Shown here in pieces: positions 66-6,660 of a DNA stretch of 60,443 nt. The notes under the pieces were generated by a model, which was given only the letters and a program-made list of their open reading frames with translations, ran no database searches and was not told the DNA's origin. Both the position numbers and the translations under genes were made by a program. The stretch spans positions 1 through 60,443 of the forward strand of contig CAYGAJ010000001.1 in the NCBI GenBank assembly GCA_964347815.1. The letters run 5' to 3'. How positions within the stretch are numbered: the stretch's first letter is position 1; each line of letters begins with the position of its first letter. Source of the DNA: an uncultured Gemmatimonadota bacterium (lineage in GTDB: Bacteria; Gemmatimonadota; Gemmatimonadetes; Palauibacterales; KS3-K002).

Positions 66-524
66 ATGGCGGCGCTCGAGACTAGCGCGGCGGAGCGCCA
101 CCCATCGCTGCGGGCGGAGATCGAGACGGCGGATCGCATCCTGGTGCCGGCGTTCGAGGATGCGGATCGGAAAGCGCTCGAGTACCAGCGCAAGTTTCGC
201 CGTGCCGAGCTGGCGGTGATCTACGGCAGCGTTCTCGCGGTCGCCTTGGGGCTGGCGGCGAGCGTGACGGGAGCGAACGCCTACAGCTTCGTCGAGCTGG
301 TCCTCACCGCCGGTCTCGGTTCCGTCGCCTTTGTCTCCAAGGGTCTCAAGTGGCAACGTCGCTGGCTACGCAGTCGCTGGCTGGCGGAGACGCTTCGCGG
401 CGAACGCCTGATGTTCATCGGCCAGTTGGGCGACTACGGCAATGCGGAAGACCCCGAGGTCGCGCTGCGGCGCCGTCTGGTCGATATCGAACGGGCGGCC
501 CGGGAGGGACAGAGCGATGGCTGA
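66..524 (+). CDS. SLATT/DUF4231-like two-transmembrane protein (152 aa)
   Basis: Soluble helical N-terminus (KALEYQRKFRR) followed by a hairpin of two hydrophobic helices (AELAVIYGSVLAVALGLAASVTG and FVELVLTAGLGSVAFVSKGL). Then a W/R-rich helix (WQRRWLRSRWLAETLRGE). Architecture recalled as typical of DUF4231/SLATT. Confidence 0.6.
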   Translation: MAALETSAAERHPSLRAEIETADRILVPAFEDADRKALEYQRKFRRAELAVIYGSVLAVALGLAASVTGANAYSFVELVLTAGLGSVAFVSKGLKWQRRWLRSRWLAETLRGERLMFIGQLGDYGNAEDPEVALRRRLVDIERAAREGQSDG

Positions 525-1011
525 GCGCGACCGCGACTTCCTGCGCTTCTACGAACAGGAGCGCGTCGAGGACCAGCTGAAGTACTATCGGCGCCAGGCC
601 GGCTGGCACGGCCGCCGTGACGACACGCTCCTCCTCATCAGCGGGATCCTGATGTTCGTCGCCGCTGTCGCCTCGGGCGTCTCGGCGTCGAACTGGGAGG
701 GGGTGGGGCCAGCGGTTCTCTGGAGCTCGGTGGCGGCGCTGGTGCCGGCGCTCGCCGCCGCCGTCGCCGCGACCCGGGCCCTGTACGAGCACGAGCGCAA
801 CCACCAGCGATTCGAGAACACGTTCCACGATCTCGAATATCTCAGGGCTTACAAGGCGCCGTCGGCGAAGCTGGCCGAGGCGGAGTACCGCACCGCGCTG
901 GAGGAGTACGTGGGCGAGGTCGAGGGCTTGCTCTCGCGCGAGCACCGGCAGTGGGTCGAGGTGATGACCCAGGTGCAGGCCGCCCAGGCGCCGGAGCCGC
1001 CCGGCGGCTAG
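517..1011 (+). CDS. Second SLATT/DUF4231-like two-transmembrane protein (164 aa from ATG 517)
   Basis: Internal ATG at 517 overlaps the upstream stop (ATGGCTGA). QLKYYRRQA helix, then two TM helices (TLLLISGILMFVAAVASGVSA and AVLWSSVAALVPALAAAVAAT), then a helical tail. The 442 start in the ORF track is rejected because its leader is Arg-rich. Confidence 0.6.
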   Translation: MAERDRDFLRFYEQERVEDQLKYYRRQAGWHGRRDDTLLLISGILMFVAAVASGVSASNWEGVGPAVLWSSVAALVPALAAAVAATRALYEHERNHQRFENTFHDLEYLRAYKAPSAKLAEAEYRTALEEYVGEVEGLLSREHRQWVEVMTQVQAAQAPEPPGG

Positions 1012-1023
1012 CCCGGGCGTGGC

Positions 1024-3243
1024 TCAGGACAAGAACCCGCCCAGCACGTCGCGCAGATTCGGGCCCGACCCCCGCAAGCTGTACGGCTGGACCCGCAGTT
1101 TGGCCAGGGCAGGGAACAGCCGGTCCACGGTGTCCTCCTGCCCGACGATCAACGTGTCACGACCCAGGCAGTGGGCGATCCCCAGCTCCAGCGCCACGTT
1201 CGCGTTGAAGCCCGTCAGGTCCACGACCACACGTGATGCCCGGCAAAGCTCGTCCCAGATCGAGCGGATGATCCGCGGATTCTTCACGGCGTCACCGCGG
1301 ACGTAATCGACGCCAGCCGCCTCACAGGCTTTGCGGGTGAGATCCATAACCTCGTCCGACCAGTCCATCCCGAATGGCATCACGTGAAAGCACCGGCGCG
1401 CGCCGGGCTCTGGGTAGCTTCCCGGCCAGGCGGGTCGCAGCGGCGCCGGTGCCTCGGGCCCGGAGAAGCCCAGCAGGTTGTCGATGAGATAGCGGACCTT
1501 GAGTGGATCGTCCGCCGCCTCACCGAGCAAGCCGATCGTGTGCTTGGCCTCCCAGCTCGCCTCGTCACCGCCCAGAACGCGCCGGGCATAGGCGATCGTC
1601 TCTGCGATCGACGAGTCGCCGCCGCCTCTCTGCTGCCCGTACAGCGCCTCGTCGAGCGCGTCGCTCAGACGCCGGACATCTTCACCGTCGCCGGCGAGGC
1701 GAACCGGCACGACATCGACGTCGAAGGGAAGGCGGCCCTGGCCAGGCGCGACGATCACGATGGAACGTCCAAGCGCGAGCCCGATACCAAGCTCGTAGCA
1801 TACGGCGGCTAATTCGGTCGCCTCGGCAGAAGTGAAATCGAAAACCGCGACGTTGCACCGGCGCAGTCCGTCCCACCGTTCCTGTGCGTAGTTCCGCTTC
1901 GTGCCGCCCGAAACCAGCTCGAGGCTACGGGCGCCGCACACCTCGGCCGCGAGCCGCTGCACGTCCGTCCCACCCGAGAAAAAGATCGCGTTGGCGTCTT
2001 GTGAGACCGGCGGCGCCGGCCAGATGGGATTGGCCAGGGTGAGGTGATGGCGCATGGCATAGTCGCGCGCGTCGAGGGCGAGCTTGCGAAGCGACTCGCG
2101 CTCGAGCGCGATGACCGCGTCGTCGTCGGCGCCGGCCTGGCGCAGGCTCGTTCCGGCTTGGGCCACGCGGACGAACAGGTTCTCCACGGTCTTGTGCTCG
2201 TCCTCCGCCTTGTGCGCGCGTCCCCCCTCGATGAATAGGAAGCGCTTGACGCCGGCCAAGAGCCGATCGACCCGCTCGGCCCGCGAGCCGCCCGGTGGCG
2301 CTTCACCCTCGTACGTCGGCCGGTCCACCGCGGTCGTCATGCGGCCCATCAGCTCCCGCACGCGCGCGACTCTGCTCATCATATCAGAGAGGTCGTCGGG
2401 TTTCTCCTTCATGACCTCTCCCAACTCCTCGAGGATCGGCTCCAGCGCCTCCTTGCGCTCCGGCGTGAACTCCCCGGCCCGGACCTTCTCGTTGAACAGC
2501 TTGAGCAACATCTCGTAGCCGGCCGTCAGCTCGTTCGATTCGGTCGGGGGAGCGGTGTCCTCGATCTCCATCGATTCCGGTCGCAGGATATCCGATTCGG
2601 CGGTCGTCTCTTCTTCGTCCGGCTCTGATATGCCCAGGCCCGTCGACCCTTCGAGCAGCTCGCGCACGGCCTCGCTGTCCCAATCGCCGGCGGTCACCGG
2701 CAGTGTTTTCGCGTAGCTCGTCAGGCCTCGAAAGGCGCGCTGGACGCTGGCCCGCTCCAGCGTCGCGTCGATGGCCGCGTCGAGCTGGCTGGCCTGGGGC
2801 TCCCCGATAAGTTGGCGGATGACGGCGTTTGCGGGGCCCAGGTCCAGCGGCAAGAGCGGGCGGCCCGTCCAGAGCCGGTAGGAATCCGAGATCGATTGCA
2901 GAAGCCGTTGCGCGAAATACGCATCGTCCATCAGGCCGATCAGCCCGAAGTGATCGAAGATGATATCGAGCGGCGAGACGAAGTACTGCTGGGCCGCCTC
3001 GAGAATCGGCATCGCGTAATGCGAGATACCGACCTGGTTGGCGGCGACGGCGCACGCGTCGAGCAGGTCGGGAACGTTCTCGATGTAGTCGCGGATAAAC
3101 CCGACGGTGCCGGCGATCTCCGATGGCGGCGGCCGATGCCCGTGTTGAGCGGCGGCCTGTCGGAGCATCTGCGCGGCGCTGCCCGAGAACTGTTCGTGCG
3201 CGATGGCCCGGGCGATCTGTTGACGGAGTACTTGCGTTTGCAT
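1024..3243 (-). CDS. Multidomain protein (739 aa): N-terminal DUF1232-like module, acidic helical linker, two tandem nucleoside-2-deoxyribosyltransferase/TIR-like domains
   Basis: ATG at 3243. The N-terminal ~170 aa align with the N-terminus of the neighbouring 3259-5235 product. YFVSPLDIIFDHFGLIGLMDDAYF resembles the DUF1232/YkvA signature. Two repeats are present: AIFFSGG...ELAAVCYELGIGLALGRSIVIV (aa ~418-520) and CFHVMPFG...FNANVALELGIAHCLGRDTLIV (aa ~617-725). Confidence 0.75.
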   Translation of the reverse strand: MQTQVLRQQIARAIAHEQFSGSAAQMLRQAAAQHGHRPPPSEIAGTVGFIRDYIENVPDLLDACAVAANQVGISHYAMPILEAAQQYFVSPLDIIFDHFGLIGLMDDAYFAQRLLQSISDSYRLWTGRPLLPLDLGPANAVIRQLIGEPQASQLDAAIDATLERASVQRAFRGLTSYAKTLPVTAGDWDSEAVRELLEGSTGLGISEPDEEETTAESDILRPESMEIEDTAPPTESNELTAGYEMLLKLFNEKVRAGEFTPERKEALEPILEELGEVMKEKPDDLSDMMSRVARVRELMGRMTTAVDRPTYEGEAPPGGSRAERVDRLLAGVKRFLFIEGGRAHKAEDEHKTVENLFVRVAQAGTSLRQAGADDDAVIALERESLRKLALDARDYAMRHHLTLANPIWPAPPVSQDANAIFFSGGTDVQRLAAEVCGARSLELVSGGTKRNYAQERWDGLRRCNVAVFDFTSAEATELAAVCYELGIGLALGRSIVIVAPGQGRLPFDVDVVPVRLAGDGEDVRRLSDALDEALYGQQRGGGDSSIAETIAYARRVLGGDEASWEAKHTIGLLGEAADDPLKVRYLIDNLLGFSGPEAPAPLRPAWPGSYPEPGARRCFHVMPFGMDWSDEVMDLTRKACEAAGVDYVRGDAVKNPRIIRSIWDELCRASRVVVDLTGFNANVALELGIAHCLGRDTLIVGQEDTVDRLFPALAKLRVQPYSLRGSGPNLRDVLGGFLS

Positions 3244-3258
3244 TGTGGGTTGCCGTCT

Positions 3259-5235
3259 CTAGGCTGGCGGTGCCGCCTCGATCAGCTCGAGCTCGGCTCC
3301 GCACGTGAGATGCCGCCTGCCGTTCCAGGTCTCGCCGTGTGTGGCGAATCGCTTGCCGCATTGAGGACAGCGGAGCCACCCATCGGGTCCGACCTCGACT
3401 TTGAGCCGCGGCATCAGATAAACGATCGTGTCGCTGAATTGCAGATCGGCGAGCTGCTCCGGTGGCGGCGGCGCCGGAGGCCCCTCGATGATCACCGGCA
3501 AGATCTCGGGTGGGTTTTCCTCATGGCCGTTCTTCCTCGTGACCGCATAGTCGATCTCGCGCCCAATCCACTCCGAATCACGTGCCGCGCTGGACCAGAA
3601 CAGAAAGAAGACGTCGGAGCGGTCGATGGCGCGATACAGCTCACGCTCCCAACGGTCACCGGGAGCCAGACTCAAGATGTCCTGGAAGAACTCGTATTTG
3701 AGTAGCTTCAACATCTGCACCCGCTTGAGGACCTCGGCTCGATCCTGCGATGCGTAAGAGACAAAGGCGTAGCGAAAGCGCTTTGCGGTTCCGGTTGGCG
3801 TAACCGATGAGTCCTCTGTGACCGCTGCGGGCTTCACCTCGATCTTGAAGTTGATCTTCCCGATGGGATCGCCGTCCTGCGAGATCAAGAGCTTGCCAAT
3901 CAGGGTCAGATTCGGTTCGGACGGTGCCCGGACCCCGAAACTCACCGACGCCGTCCGCCCCCGCCAGCGCAGGTCCTGGACGGTGTCATCGATCGTGGCC
4001 TCGGGAAGCTTCAGCTCGAAGCTGAGAAACGAGCCGCGGCGGATCTCGGTCCACAGCAGGGTGGTGCCGCGCCGACTCGCTTCGGCGTCGAATTCCGCGG
4101 CCATCTCGGCCGCCTCGGCGGCACCTTCGGGCAGGTGCGCGTAGGCCTGTATCAGAAATCGCTGGCTTGGACTTACCTGCGCCGGGGCGAACACGCTGAC
4201 GTCGACTTCGTCAGCCGGAGTGGATCCTCCGGCACCCGGGCCACCGCCGCTGTCTGAGTCGCCGGCGTCCAGCTCGCCGGCGGAGTGGAAAGCGTCGCCT
4301 GCATTCGACAGCGGGAAGAACAGAGCGCCAAGACAGCCGCTTCGGCTCGCGTGTGGCGGCGTCGCTTCCGGTTCTGTTGCGACGGGAGGAAGAGGCTCGC
4401 GTGAGCGCAGCAGGTCGCGCTCAGGCGGCGGCGCTTCCCGACGCAGTCGATCCAGCTCCAGCCGCCGCTGACGCTCGCGCTCGACGGATTCGTCGCTTGC
4501 CGGCGATGGCGCCGCGGCCGCCGGCGGTTCCGCAGCCTCGAGCGGGGGCGGCGCCGCCGAAGTCCGCTCGCCGCTGAGTGTCTCGAACAGGCGGACCGGC
4601 GCCAGACGCGCCTCGCGGTGGCCTCGGATATCGTCCACGCTCCAGACCGGGCCGGTGAGCGCGAGGAGCGCGGGTGGCGGGGCAATGTATTCCAGCTCGG
4701 CGTAGGCGGCGCATATCGTATCGCAGGCCTGCTGCAGCGCCGGCGCCTCCAGCGTGGTCTCGACCGCGGCTTCGATCGACGCCGCCAGCTCGGGTCCAAA
4801 AAGCTCTCGCGCGACAGCGTTCGCCGGGCCGAGGTCCAGCGAGATGAGTCGGCGACCGGTTCGCGCCGCGACGGCGTCGGATAGACGCTGCAGCAGACGA
4901 TAGGCAAAAAACGCCTCGTCGATCAGCTGAAGCAGCGGCTGCTCTTCGACCGCCGTGCCCGGTGGGGCGAAGTTCCGCTCGATCGTCGCCAGGATGGCCG
5001 CGACCTGATCCTCGATCCCGGCCGCTGCGGCCGCCCGCTGGCAGGAGTGCAGCAGAACCGGAATGTGCTGCACGTACGACCGGATGAAGGCAACCGTGCG
5101 CTGGATCTCGGCGTCGCTCAGCCCGAGACCTACGGCACGCGCTCTCTCGGACAAATGCGCGGCGGTCTCGCCCGTACGCTCGTCATGGGCGAGCCCCGCT
5201 TCGATCAGAGCCGCGGTTCTAGCGATCGCAGACAC
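3259..5235 (-). CDS. TIR-domain protein (658 aa): shared N-terminal module, Pro/Ala-rich linker, beta-rich domain, TIR domain, CxxC...C tail
   Basis: GTG start at 5235. TIR signature YAFVSYASQDRAEV...DVFFLFWSSAARDSEWIGREIDYA (aa ~486-605). C-terminal WLRCPQCGKRF...HLTCG looks like a Zn ribbon. It lies 15 nt upstream of the next gene and 30 nt downstream of the previous one. Confidence 0.8.
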   Translation of the reverse strand: MSAIARTAALIEAGLAHDERTGETAAHLSERARAVGLGLSDAEIQRTVAFIRSYVQHIPVLLHSCQRAAAAAGIEDQVAAILATIERNFAPPGTAVEEQPLLQLIDEAFFAYRLLQRLSDAVAARTGRRLISLDLGPANAVARELFGPELAASIEAAVETTLEAPALQQACDTICAAYAELEYIAPPPALLALTGPVWSVDDIRGHREARLAPVRLFETLSGERTSAAPPPLEAAEPPAAAAPSPASDESVERERQRRLELDRLRREAPPPERDLLRSREPLPPVATEPEATPPHASRSGCLGALFFPLSNAGDAFHSAGELDAGDSDSGGGPGAGGSTPADEVDVSVFAPAQVSPSQRFLIQAYAHLPEGAAEAAEMAAEFDAEASRRGTTLLWTEIRRGSFLSFELKLPEATIDDTVQDLRWRGRTASVSFGVRAPSEPNLTLIGKLLISQDGDPIGKINFKIEVKPAAVTEDSSVTPTGTAKRFRYAFVSYASQDRAEVLKRVQMLKLLKYEFFQDILSLAPGDRWERELYRAIDRSDVFFLFWSSAARDSEWIGREIDYAVTRKNGHEENPPEILPVIIEGPPAPPPPEQLADLQFSDTIVYLMPRLKVEVGPDGWLRCPQCGKRFATHGETWNGRRHLTCGAELELIEAAPPA

Positions 5236-5265
5236 GTCAGTGTTCCAGGCGATTCCGTGAGGGGC

Positions 5266-6660
5266 CTAGTCGGCTGCAGAACCGCGCAGATCGCGCTCGA
5301 TGTCGTCCGCCCAGTCCACGGTTTCACCTCGTTTCTGGCGGGCGTTGCGAATCAACTCCAGGTTACCGGCGGTCGATTTCATCTGCCAGCCGTGAGGCGA
5401 CTCCGCGAGTGCTTTGTCTGTCGCCTTTTCGGCGGCCTCACGGTCGTTCGCCAGGACCGCCAGTTCGAGAAGCGTCGCGTAATCCCAGTAGTCTGGTTCG
5501 CCGGTGGCCACGCGTCGCTCCGTGCTGTAAGCGACGACAGGGAGAATCTTTTCGCGCCGGGGGTCTGGCGGGTCTCGAATCTCCATCAGCGTGACCGCGT
5601 TGATGCCGGGATAGGCGTCGCGCCAATCCGCCTCGAAGCCGCGAACATAGGCGTCGATCGCCTTGTCCAGGAAGCCGCGGGCGAGACGCCCCTCGCCCGC
5701 CTCCAGCGCCGCCTTCCACCGGTCCTTGTAGACGCGACCGAGCAGACCGTAAGTTTCGCTGCTGGGCCCGCGCCGCTCGAGTAGCTTCAGCAGCACGCGC
5801 TCGGCTTCCTCGCCACGGCCGGCGCGATTGAGCGCGAAGGCCAGCTGCTCCTGAACCATCACGGTCTCCGCCAGCGGCGCGGACATCTCGTCGACGAGGG
5901 CGATCATCTCCTCCCAACCCTCGACGTCGCGATATGAGAGAAACAGATCGATCACGACGCCGGCCTCCGTGTCGCTGATCGTCCCCAGCGTCTTTTGGAC
6001 GGCCTGTAGCTCCTTGGGGCCCGACAGCTCCTTCCTCTTTTCCTCGTTGATCTCCTTTTTCTCCCGATCGAGCGTCTCCTTGTCTTTCTTCTTGGCCACG
6101 GCCAGCCGCTCCTTCGCTTCGCTCGAGTAGCGAACGCGATCGCGGAACACGTCGGTCCTGAGACGCGCGATGTCCGGCGGCTTCAGACCGTCAAGCAGCT
6201 GGAACAGCGGGCTGTCGGTTACCGCCTGTCGCGCATCACGCAGCTTTCCGGCCAAGGCCTTGCGAGTCTCGTCCACGTCGGCCGGCGTGCCGGTGGCGGT
6301 GAGCCGGTAGGGAAGGGCGCGCAGAGGCGCCACGTCGAACGGCAGCCGCGTGTTCTCCGAGAAGATGAGCACCGTGCTCCAGGGGCGGGCGGTGTGGCGA
6401 ACCCCCAGCTCGTAGAAGACGTTGGCGTTCGCCGTCGTCAAATCCGCCACCGCGTACTCGCACAGCAACAGCCGCTCGAACATCGCCTGATGGATGACGC
6501 CGCCGACAATCTCTTCGTCGGCGCGTACCGCCTCCAGATCGGCGTCCTCAATGGCCAGCCGGATCAAATCGCGATAAACGGCATCGAAGTCGATGAGCGA
6601 GCCGGCGGGATCAGGCTTCTTGCCGAACGGCATGAGGACGAAGCAGAGCGGGCGGGTCAC
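5266..6660 (-). CDS. Deoxyribosyltransferase/TIR-like N-terminal domain fused to a DUF4071 (TRAFs-binding-type) TPR-like domain (464 aa)
   Basis: GTG at 6660 lies 7 nt after GAGG and yields MTRPLCFVLMPFGKK...TTANANVFYELGVRHTARPWSTVLIF. A Lys/Glu-rich coil follows (KKKDKETLDREKKEINEEKRKE). The C-terminus YGLLGRVYKDRW...DAYPGINAVTL is recalled as DUF4071-like. The 742-aa ORF-track version is rejected because its 5' part is low-complexity and overlaps the TetR gene. Confidence 0.75.
   Translation of the reverse strand: MTRPLCFVLMPFGKKPDPAGSLIDFDAVYRDLIRLAIEDADLEAVRADEEIVGGVIHQAMFERLLLCEYAVADLTTANANVFYELGVRHTARPWSTVLIFSENTRLPFDVAPLRALPYRLTATGTPADVDETRKALAGKLRDARQAVTDSPLFQLLDGLKPPDIARLRTDVFRDRVRYSSEAKERLAVAKKKDKETLDREKKEINEEKRKELSGPKELQAVQKTLGTISDTEAGVVIDLFLSYRDVEGWEEMIALVDEMSAPLAETVMVQEQLAFALNRAGRGEEAERVLLKLLERRGPSSETYGLLGRVYKDRWKAALEAGEGRLARGFLDKAIDAYVRGFEADWRDAYPGINAVTLMEIRDPPDPRREKILPVVAYSTERRVATGEPDYWDYATLLELAVLANDREAAEKATDKALAESPHGWQMKSTAGNLELIRNARQKRGETVDWADDIERDLRGSAAD

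Follow-up and report, generated by a model that had tools for sequence, protein, structure and literature searches.

The window, i.e. the whole 60,443-nucleotide stretch of DNA analysed here, comes from an uncultured Gemmatimonadota bacterium and contains an operon in which two adjacent genes encode proteins with related N-terminal domains, referred to below as heads. The two genes, their head-coding regions and their immediate neighbours are arranged as follows.

66..524, plus strand: SLATT_3/DUF4231 2TM protein (Pfam match), convergent with the 739-aa gene
517..1011, plus strand: SLATT_1 2TM protein (Pfam and NCBIfam match)
1024..3243, minus strand: 739-aa gene, encoding a head, an acidic linker (176-243), a helical middle (244-410), NDT-like module 1 (~411-530) and NDT/TIR-like module 2 (~611-739)
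2710..3243, minus strand: head of the 739-aa protein (aa 1-~178), an eight-helix soluble DUF1232-like domain (BLASTP with the paralogue, profile matches, AF2)
2917..2985, minus strand: DUF1232 motif of the 739-aa protein (aa 87-109), YFVSPLDIIFDHFGLIGLMDDAY (Pfam PF06803, six-frame match)
3259..5235, minus strand: 658-aa gene, encoding a degenerate head, a Pro/Ala-rich linker, a middle domain (~336-480), TIR_2 (491-602) and a Cys-rich C-terminal tail
4711..5235, minus strand: head of the 658-aa protein (aa 1-~175), paralogous, rapidly evolving and in part degenerate
4906..4971, minus strand: region of the 658-aa protein (aa 89-110) that corresponds to the DUF1232 loop but is degenerate, FAPPGTAVEEQPLLQLIDEAFF (no PF06803 match)
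5266..6660, minus strand: first gene of the operon (464 aa), encoding an NDT/TIR-like N-terminal module and TPR-S (Pfam MAP3K_TRAF_bd)

The 464-aa protein, whose GTG start at 6660 was placed by comparison with the orthologue in locus L003, matches the Pfam families MAP3K_TRAF_bd (179 bits) and TPR-S (100 bits), and its N-terminus matches the PADLOC TIR-effector. On the other side of the operon, the product of the first SLATT gene is recognised in Pfam as DUF4231 (37.5 bits) and SLATT_3 (30.2 bits), with NCBIfam scores below the cut-offs for both SLATT_1 (37.9 bits, cut-off 41) and SLATT_3 (32.6 bits, cut-off 45). The SLATT_1 gene (54 bits in Pfam, 72.6 bits in NCBIfam) overlaps, at its start, the stop of the SLATT gene before it; 12 nt separate its end from the stop of the 739-aa gene. 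The pair is kept beside 739-type genes in L004, L125 and L126, and the SLATT_1 gene also in L003 and L049.

According to the original prediction, the 739-aa and 658-aa proteins can be aligned almost without gaps over their first ~170 residues, after which their domains differ completely, and both statements hold. BLASTP aligns residues 10-170 of the former with 11-170 of the latter at 40% identity (64/161) with one gap, a highly significant match (E=5e-28), and detects no further significant similarity outside the heads. Downstream, the 739-aa protein has two NDT-like modules. At residues 447-501 its Nuc_deoxyrib_tr match (24.6 bits) lies below the GA of 28.8, a threshold that 739-type orthologues do pass (e.g. 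33.1 and 35.5 bits), and residues 651-705 of the second, NDT/TIR-like module match the PADLOC TIR-effector PDLC00733 (E=7e-7). The 658-aa protein instead carries TIR_2 (68.4 bits in Pfam) together with a weak Zn-ribbon match; its middle domain has no Pfam match and no PDB sequence match. Among 739-type orthologues the head is the best-conserved region, and the linkers are poorly conserved.

A DUF1232-like motif had been noticed in the 739-aa copy and described as degenerate in the 658-aa copy. The former scores 29.2 bits against PF06803 (GA 23), and a six-frame search returned identical coordinates at 33.8 bits; the latter has no Pfam DUF1232 match even at E<=1. Therefore, only one of the two head copies qualifies as DUF1232. 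Flanking transmembrane helices of the YkvA type are absent from both heads, as had also been proposed for the 739-aa copy: the maximum Kyte-Doolittle 19-residue mean is only ~1.0-1.3, and AF2 produces a compact soluble bundle. The model of the 739-aa head (pLDDT 88.4, pTM 0.84) consists of eight helices, from H3-20 to H150-178, with the DUF1232 motif forming the loop between helices 5 and 6 (pLDDT 58 for block 91-100). This all-helical fold has no counterpart in PDB or BFVD, and the possibility of a common housekeeping fold, raised at the outset, was not borne out.

The relationship with DUF1232/YkvA extends beyond this single protein. Many members of the head family, like the 739-aa head itself, pass GA over the P-x-D-x-I-P-D...G-x-x-G-x-x-D-D helix-loop-helix, NCBI annotation labels orthologues of the 739 type 'DUF1232 domain-containing' or 'YkvA family protein', and L044 encodes a second DUF1232 protein, of a more typical kind, which hhalign matches to the head profile across 79 columns (E=2.8e-5, probability 74%). 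However, the Pfam model spans only ~23 of the ~175 head residues, and the head differs from DUF1232/YkvA in being soluble and in having additional helices and a second motif, LIGEPxAxxLD. Eight polar residues are invariant family-wide (Y53, D93, D97, D106, D107, R143, E148 and D155). The conserved residues are mostly acidic, and so is the domain as a whole (pI ~4.5-5.5). The invariant polar residues suggest a pocket for a ligand or metal more than they do a simple interface.

The 658-aa head retains 20 of the 39 family-conserved positions and departs from the family consensus in the loop (Y87N, D93T, P96E, G100P, G103Q), while being 78-87% conserved among its own orthologues (those of the 658-aa protein are P0013-P0016). 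In the phylogeny it clusters with the 739 heads (set support 95/84; for a single clade, AU test p=0.74), and its stem branch measures ~1.58 substitutions/site. These sequence comparisons identify the 658-aa head as a rapidly evolving duplicate specific to its lineage. The TIR-bearing 658 type occurs only beside the NDT-bearing 739 type (4/4 contexts, window included), and its gene is invariably flanked by the TPR-S and 739 genes. Genes of the 739 type are often found without one of the 658 type (L003-L005, L049, L051). Adjacent head pairs are present in the window and in L045, L125, L126 and L076.

The head family turned out to be large, with 851 clusters at 90% identity and at least 671 representatives at 50% identity. 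Nearly all members are standalone soluble proteins of ~205-260 aa, and whole subfamilies are single-copy genes in housekeeping contexts. The fusions that we catalogued join the head, at either terminus, to 2xNDT or TIR; CHAT and DUF900 hydrolase fusions also occur. These fusions are independent and come from different standalone clades. In our sample of loci, drawn with a sequence pattern biased to one subfamily and hence not suited to estimating population fractions, the majority of loci show one head gene beside a head-less effector. Homotypic head-head pairing therefore cannot be the general mode. In one branch, a standalone head is encoded within three genes of a TPR-CHAT protease (20 loci); in 12 loci the gene within the same distance encodes a 770-807-aa 2xNDT protein. 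Head and effector genes are usually co-directional, with gaps of 11-93 nt. The N-terminus of the NDT partners and the TPR region of the CHAT partners have no detectable module in common (hhalign probability 1.8%). One such locus is directly informative about the 739-aa protein (P0001): its residues 244-739 share 39% identity (E=3e-102) with a 773-aa protein of L101, encoded just after a standalone head and having no head at its own N-terminus. Since its 2xNDT body has a head-less homologue beside a standalone head, the 739-aa protein represents a Rosetta-stone fusion.

How does the head compare with known systems? Effector-associated domains (EADs) have been proposed to bring effectors together through homotypic contacts (Kaur, Burroughs, Iyer & Aravind 2020, PMC7159879), because they are small linker-fused helical domains on unrelated effectors, occur as adjacent copies and have same-locus paralogues that are mutually closest. 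The head resembles EAD1-11 and bacterial Death-like domains in all these respects, its flexible linkers and diverse unrelated fusion partners included. On the other hand, no EAD1-11 or Death-like Pfam model matches either protein at E<=1. Adjacent head copies reside on a second effector or stand alone, never on an NTPase/vWA core, and vWA-MoxR, GTPase or STAND cores are not among the partners. The prevalence of a single standalone head with a head-less effector and the housekeeping contexts of some members are further differences.

By domain make-up alone, the island matches Thoeris type VII/VIII. Type VII comprises a TIR protein and the SLATT effector ThsH, type VIII a TIR protein and the CMP-hydrolase-TPR effector ThsI, and rare operons with both effectors have been noted (bioRxiv 10.64898/2025.12.03.692087). 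The window likewise has a TIR gene in the operon, with the SLATT pair (SLATT_1, SLATT_3) as candidate ThsH counterparts and an NDT/CMP-hydrolase-like protein with TPR-S/MAP3K_TRAF_bd, the 464-aa protein, as a candidate ThsI counterpart; NCBIfam has no ThsH or ThsI model. Unlike the systems of the preprint, it has an extra 2xNDT protein, and the related loci L003-L005 lack any canonical TIR gene. The main text of the preprint does not mention DUF1232 or YkvA and hence describes no DUF1232-named head on ThsB or an effector. No PADLOC model matches the head either: only the TIR and TIR-like parts are matched, and the standalone head P0036 has no match.

Because members of the family recur next to cell-killing effector enzymes or as fusions with them, the head is probably a regulatory or docking module. 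The original prediction of a common sensing, docking or oligomerisation module, the three taken together, is supported to the extent that fusions, operons and TIR-NDT co-occurrence point to a modular, effector-associated role. The explanation that we favour, if tentatively, is that the head serves as a modular adaptor or regulatory domain for conflict-system effectors, with head-head docking in the window locus. In this scenario, the head, an eight-helix soluble domain within the DUF1232 (YkvA-like) assemblage, had as its ancestral form a standalone protein of ~210 aa, operonic with a large effector, either a TPR-CHAT protease or a 2xNDT-like enzyme. The standalone head may touch its partner through its conserved, intrinsically unstructured C-terminal tail. 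Several lineages turned the non-covalent partnership into a covalent fusion via a flexible linker, the 739-aa protein being one such case. In this Gemmatimonadota lineage, the head was then duplicated and joined to a TIR enzyme, giving rise to the 658-aa protein, whose copy evolved some ten times faster and lost the DUF1232 loop and the IGEP motif while keeping the scaffold. The TIR enzyme likely docks onto the 739-aa protein by head-head contact, and we infer that both enzymes could be jointly controlled inside the Thoeris type VII/VIII-like island with its TIR, TPR-S-NDT-like ThsI-like protein and SLATT pair.

The conserved residues also invite a different view, namely that the head functions in the manner of SAVED, CARF or SLOG, as a receptor that recognises a small molecule, a second messenger or a metal. 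A ligand bound at the DUF1232 loop and IGEP pocket would activate the attached or adjacent effector, and the 658-aa copy would be left as a ligand-blind scaffold. The fused effectors (TIR, CHAT, hydrolase, NDT) mirror those on known nucleotide-sensor domains, the invariant polar and aromatic residues are concentrated in two motifs, and the head is better conserved than the enzymes, as expected with a fixed ligand. The island also holds candidate signal-making enzymes, and cADPR TIR-to-SLATT and TIR-to-TPR signalling has been reported in Thoeris VII/VIII (bioRxiv 10.64898/2025.12.03.692087). However, we consider such a receptor rather unlikely: an acidic domain is poorly suited to phosphorylated nucleotides unless a metal bridges, TPR-S is already the predicted signal sensor of such islands, and the head shows no structural likeness to any solved ligand-binding fold. 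Moreover, no nucleotide cyclase, SMODS or TIR gene recurs among the 79 neighbours scanned around TPR-CHAT and head genes, where patatin, TPR-S and TPR are the only recurring types. Partner enzymes might instead act on the standalone head. In type III-E CRISPR, TPR-CHAT (Csx29) adjoins its substrate Csx30, and caspase-gasdermin pairs are comparable. The gene arrangement in the 20 loci, where a TPR-CHAT gene directly adjoins that of a small all-helical protein, is similar, and the conserved disordered tail could be a cleavage or recognition site. The head might thus be cleaved like Csx30 or gasdermin, or modified by NDT/TIR-like enzymes, with fused heads acting in cis. The likeness is limited to gene arrangement: there is no CRISPR context, non-protease partners (NDT, TIR, DUF900) are also found, fused heads lack the tail, and a Kyte-Doolittle scan of the heads revealed no hidden hydrophobic hairpin hinting at a latent pore-former. 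As a substrate role also leaves unexplained why two different effectors of one operon each have a head, we regard it as improbable.

It is quite improbable that the head senses invaders or guards the host, binding a phage protein or monitoring a conserved host component and then releasing the attached effector. An N-terminal position is typical for sensor domains of single-chain defence proteins, and the housekeeping paralogues point to a ubiquitous component of the cell as an ancestral interaction partner; yet the head is the most conserved rather than the most variable part of the protein, no relatives were found in viral contigs, and in such operons sensing is more usually the task of TPR-S and TPR modules. 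Peripheral membrane targeting, by which a soluble remnant of membrane-embedded YkvA/DUF1232 would bring enzymes near SLATT pores, is very improbable. It would fit the annotation of canonical DUF1232 proteins as membrane proteins and the conservation of the SLATT pair, but the heads are acidic and free of transmembrane or strongly hydrophobic segments, and TPR-CHAT and head operons feature no recurrent membrane effector.

A broader version of the adaptor reading is more speculative than the one favoured above, and we put it forward only as possible: the head may represent a kind of prokaryotic immune adaptor or switch that has not been recognised before, derived from a housekeeping protein, and may gate at least four unrelated chemistries (TIR, NDT-like, CHAT protease and DUF900 hydrolase) via homo- or heterotypic contacts or a conserved ligand at the acidic loop. 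On this view, 'head + TPR-CHAT' would be a two-gene system in its own right, widespread but uncatalogued. Should the head prove to be an adaptor or switch, bacteria would have one more counterpart of Death-fold/EAD logic, which would help explain the co-regulation of differently armed effectors. To our knowledge, the widespread DUF1232/YkvA family has no assigned function. A large soluble branch of it is now linked to conflict-system effectors via conserved operons and repeated fusions, as a component, uncatalogued so far, of both Thoeris-like TIR/NDT/SLATT islands and TPR-CHAT operons. Handles on DUF1232 function are thereby provided by the binding partners, the invariant acidic residues and the conserved C-terminal tail of standalone heads, in which W188 and G189 are invariant within a segment modelled at pLDDT 33-50.

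The neighbouring 739-aa and 658-aa proteins share a true N-terminal domain, a helical head of about 170-178 residues, and this head belongs to a large family in which many members stand next to effector enzymes or are fused with them. In BLASTP, residues 10-170 of the 739-aa protein align with residues 11-170 of the 658-aa protein at 40% identity with one gap (E=5e-28), and this is the only significant segment. The near-gapless common module of the original prediction is thus highly significant over about 160 residues. The blocks FIRxY, LLQxxSD and LDLGPANA are among those conserved in both heads. The downstream parts differ as proposed, two NDT/TIR-like modules versus TIR_2, and the remainders are mutually unrelated by BLASTP. 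The suspected DUF1232 motif of the 739-aa copy corresponds to a PF06803 match at residues 87-109 (29.2 bits against a gathering threshold of 23). Its degeneration in the other copy agrees with the lack of any PF06803 match to the 658-aa protein. Wherever it could be checked, the observation was correct. The island is laid out as follows.

66-524 and 517-1011, plus strand: two overlapping SLATT genes, convergent with the 739-aa gene
1024-3243, minus strand: 739-aa gene, head plus two NDT/TIR-like modules (Nuc_deoxyrib_tr at 447-501; PADLOC TIR-effector at 651-705)
3259-5235, minus strand: 658-aa gene, head, TIR_2 at 491-602 (68 bits) and a Cys-rich tail
5266-6660, minus strand: TPR-S gene, 464 aa, NDT/TIR-like module plus TPR-S (Pfam MAP3K_TRAF_bd 179 bits, TPR-S 100 bits)

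Spacers of 30 and 15 nt separate the genes of the co-directional trio (464, 658 and 739 aa). The middle domain of the 658-aa protein had no match in a PDB sequence search. Apart from the head, the island matches the recently described Thoeris types VII and VIII in domain make-up (TIR, TPR-S-NDT-like, SLATT). In these systems TIR-made cADPR turns on SLATT (ThsH) and CMP-hydrolase-TPR (ThsI) effectors, and operons with both are rare (bioRxiv 10.64898/2025.12.03.692087). Thoeris-like TIR/TPR-S/SLATT islands are not new in themselves.

The proposed search for other head-bearing proteins revealed a large family with fusions to NDT, TIR, CHAT and DUF900. A head profile retrieved 851 clusters at 90% identity when limited to proteins of similar length, and an exhaustive search gave 671 representatives at 50% identity, with E<1e-10 for 527. 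Nearly all members are standalone proteins of 205-260 aa, and close orthologues of the 739-aa and 658-aa proteins come from Gemmatimonadota MAGs only. Two motifs are conserved across the family, the DUF1232 helix-loop-helix (YF..P.D.IPD..GL.GL.DDAY) and LIGEPxAxxLD. The AF2 model of the head, built from a 123-sequence alignment, is a confident eight-helix bundle (pLDDT 88.4, pTM 0.84), where the DUF1232 motif is a loop of lower confidence that links helices 5 and 6. Foldseek comparison of this model with PDB and BFVD gave no match at E<=0.001 (TM<0.32), and phmmer against PDB sequences gave nothing (best E=1.3). No relatives were found in the viral contigs searched, and no PADLOC or NCBIfam model covers the head.

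There are at least three subfamilies: (a), of about 207-212 aa, whose C-terminal tail PDPIWG...LGAMGVV is conserved; (b), of 216-260 aa, with another tail, in housekeeping neighbourhoods of Cellvibrionales-type genomes; and (c), divergent, single-copy, standalone proteins of about 170-190 aa with the motif PVDLIPEMTQGMAGLLDD (L010-L036). Of 70 genomes sampled from one sister family, which belongs to the same class as the window's genome, 42 carry this last form, and in the other sampled families it is nearly lacking. Its behaviour is that of a lineage core gene, not of a defence gene. The window's own genome encodes two more DUF1232 proteins, of 120 aa and about 160-198 aa (C126:1899-2006, C22:12121-12213; L037, L039), neither of which seems to show a clear TM helix on visual inspection. 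DUF1232 forms that look soluble may be more widespread than the label 'membrane protein YkvA' implies. Several head ORFs carry 120-240 additional N-terminal residues (L082:1152-2501, L086:2502-3824, L084:136-1137, L073:734-1753), which may be genuine or may reflect ORFs called too long in GC-rich DNA.

What do standalone heads keep company with? We used the pattern GLxGLxDDAY to recover 80 metagenomic loci and clustered the neighbours of their head genes. Two partners, both confirmed by Pfam, stood out: in 20 loci a TPR-CHAT protein (770-870 aa), and in 12 a protein with NDT-like domains (770-807 aa). Both are mostly co-directional with the head gene, at spacers of 11-93 nt. Thirty-eight standalone-head loci had 2.5 kb or more of sequence flanking one side, and 20 of these contained one or the other partner; since the pattern biases the sample, this proportion is no population frequency. 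One gene set recurs over such loci: L101 encodes a head, 2xNDT, TPR-S-TIR-like, patatin and TPR-S-patatin, and L003 encodes TPR-S, head-2xNDT, TPR-S-patatin and SLATT. No signal-generating enzyme recurred among 79 neighbours scanned beside TPR-CHAT and head pairs. The idea that a TPR-like N-terminal module common to the NDT and CHAT partners docks the head's tail was unsupported (BLASTP not significant, hhalign probability 1.8%).

Effector enzymes are also found fused to the head. Among the multidomain matches, 2xNDT-like bodies (730-741 aa) carry it in several lineages, and an NDT-containing protein of 1021 aa has it at the C-terminus. TIR fusions have the head at the N-terminus (507 and 659 aa) or at the C-terminus (464 aa); it is also joined to CHAT (795-796 aa) and to a DUF900 alpha/beta hydrolase (562 aa). 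In the head-domain tree these fusions branch from different standalone subfamily (a) clades, and are thus independent events. The 773-aa protein of L101, whose N-terminal 270 residues do not form a head, matches residues 244-739 of the 739-aa protein (39% identity, E=3e-102). The window's 739-aa protein thus has its head-less counterpart in the NDT partner of the 12 loci, and is a Rosetta-stone fusion of genes that elsewhere are separate neighbours. A divergent head hidden in the head-less partner was rejected (hhalign probability 0.4%).

Taken together, these data suit a putative adaptor or regulatory module that would bind its partners: enzymes of four unrelated classes carry the head, irrespective of position and joined by flexible linkers, its standalone form neighbours the same enzymes, and a lineage-specific duplicate is found solely alongside its parent. 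The main alternative, a ligand or metal receptor, for which the invariant acidic residues of the head leave room, seems to us rather unlikely. Roles as a protease substrate or an invader sensor are less likely, as is that of a membrane tether; neither head has a TM-like segment, in line with the original prediction for the 739-aa copy. As to how an adaptor might work, W188 and G189 in the C-terminal tail of standalone heads are invariant, yet modeled with pLDDT of only 33-50, and the tail is missing from fused heads. A tail that is invariant but so poorly ordered in the model is typical of a linear motif folding on a partner, and covalent fusion would therefore have replaced the tail-mediated contact. 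Adaptor or regulatory domains are a known kind of component in conflict systems, of which the head would be a variant. Its logic resembles that of the effector-associated domains (EADs) of Kaur et al. 2020 (PMC7159879). However, it lies outside the EAD families and is not attached to an NTPase core, so we class it as EAD-like in its working rather than as a member.

The lineage-specific duplicate is the 658 head. In several Gemmatimonadota a syntenic site beside a TetR-efflux operon carries the 739-type gene, with a SLATT gene or gene pair beyond it and the TPR-S gene variably present (L003-L005, L049, L051). The 658-type gene occurs in contexts counted as four (the window, L045 and L126 on one contig, and L125), flanked in every one by TPR-S and 739-type genes. 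In the contexts examined it was never without a 739-type gene, and the latter was commonly without it. The 658 heads group together with 100/100 support on a stem of 1.58 substitutions per site, nested in a 95/84-supported set of mostly Gemmatimonadota 739 heads, and a single 658+739 clade was not rejected (AU test, p=0.74). They keep 20 of 39 family-conserved positions, with losses clustering in the DUF1232 loop (Y87N, D93T, P96E, G100P, G103Q) and the IGEP motif. Across its own orthologues the 658 head is 78-87% identical, similarly to the TIR domain; among 739 orthologues the head is the best-conserved region and the linker varies almost freely. For this locus we propose that the TIR enzyme is docked to the 739-aa protein through the degenerate 658 head; the two enzymes would then be controlled jointly inside a Thoeris VII/VIII-like island. 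In L125 an 87-aa ORF (5089-5352) separates the two genes, where the window has a 15-nt spacer. The 739-type gene of two relatives is broken into two ORFs, at L005:8001-10174 and L126:3467-5702 (388+340 aa and 565+184 aa), either by frameshift or pseudogenization or by assembly error.

The NCBI names of the orthologues already reflect the DUF1232 resemblance. In the literature and PADLOC we found no description of a soluble head family of about 175 aa that repeatedly accompanies TPR-CHAT and 2xNDT effectors, of independent head fusions to four effector classes, or of the degenerate-duplicate arrangement of the window; this coverage did not extend to Burroughs & Aravind 2020 (J Bacteriol), reportedly the paper that defined TPR-S. 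Literature searches on DUF1232 with TIR and on YkvA yielded nothing relevant, and that paper may give the head another name.

The head loci encode further proteins worth recording. A TPR-S-patatin-like phospholipase (877 and 943 aa) lies beside head/2xNDT genes on unrelated contigs (L003:10261-12894, L101:8564-11395), which suggests several TPR-S-gated effectors in each island. A CHASE2-TIR protein of 572 aa (L057:4056-5774) directly follows a standalone head and 2xNDT partner, and is itself followed by a 1202-aa protein matching TPR repeats and a TonB-dependent receptor beta-barrel. A protein matching both Peptidase_U49 (Lit family) and Peptidase_M48 (L067:2458-3768) and a 1227-aa WD40 protein (L073:3068-6751), each near a standalone head, may represent additional partner classes. 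Finally, a co-directional cluster of eleven genes on JGI metagenome contig Ga0568878_0005221 (L044:1313-14241) includes a 473-aa protein with a weak Peptidase_C25 match, TPR-CHAT (872 aa), a standalone head (207 aa), a giant TPR protein (1332 aa), a Peptidase_C14 caspase (268 aa), a transglutaminase core (236 aa), a second, more canonical DUF1232 protein (278 aa), a TPR protein (197 aa) and a PG_binding protein, and looks like an uncatalogued conflict system centred on proteases.
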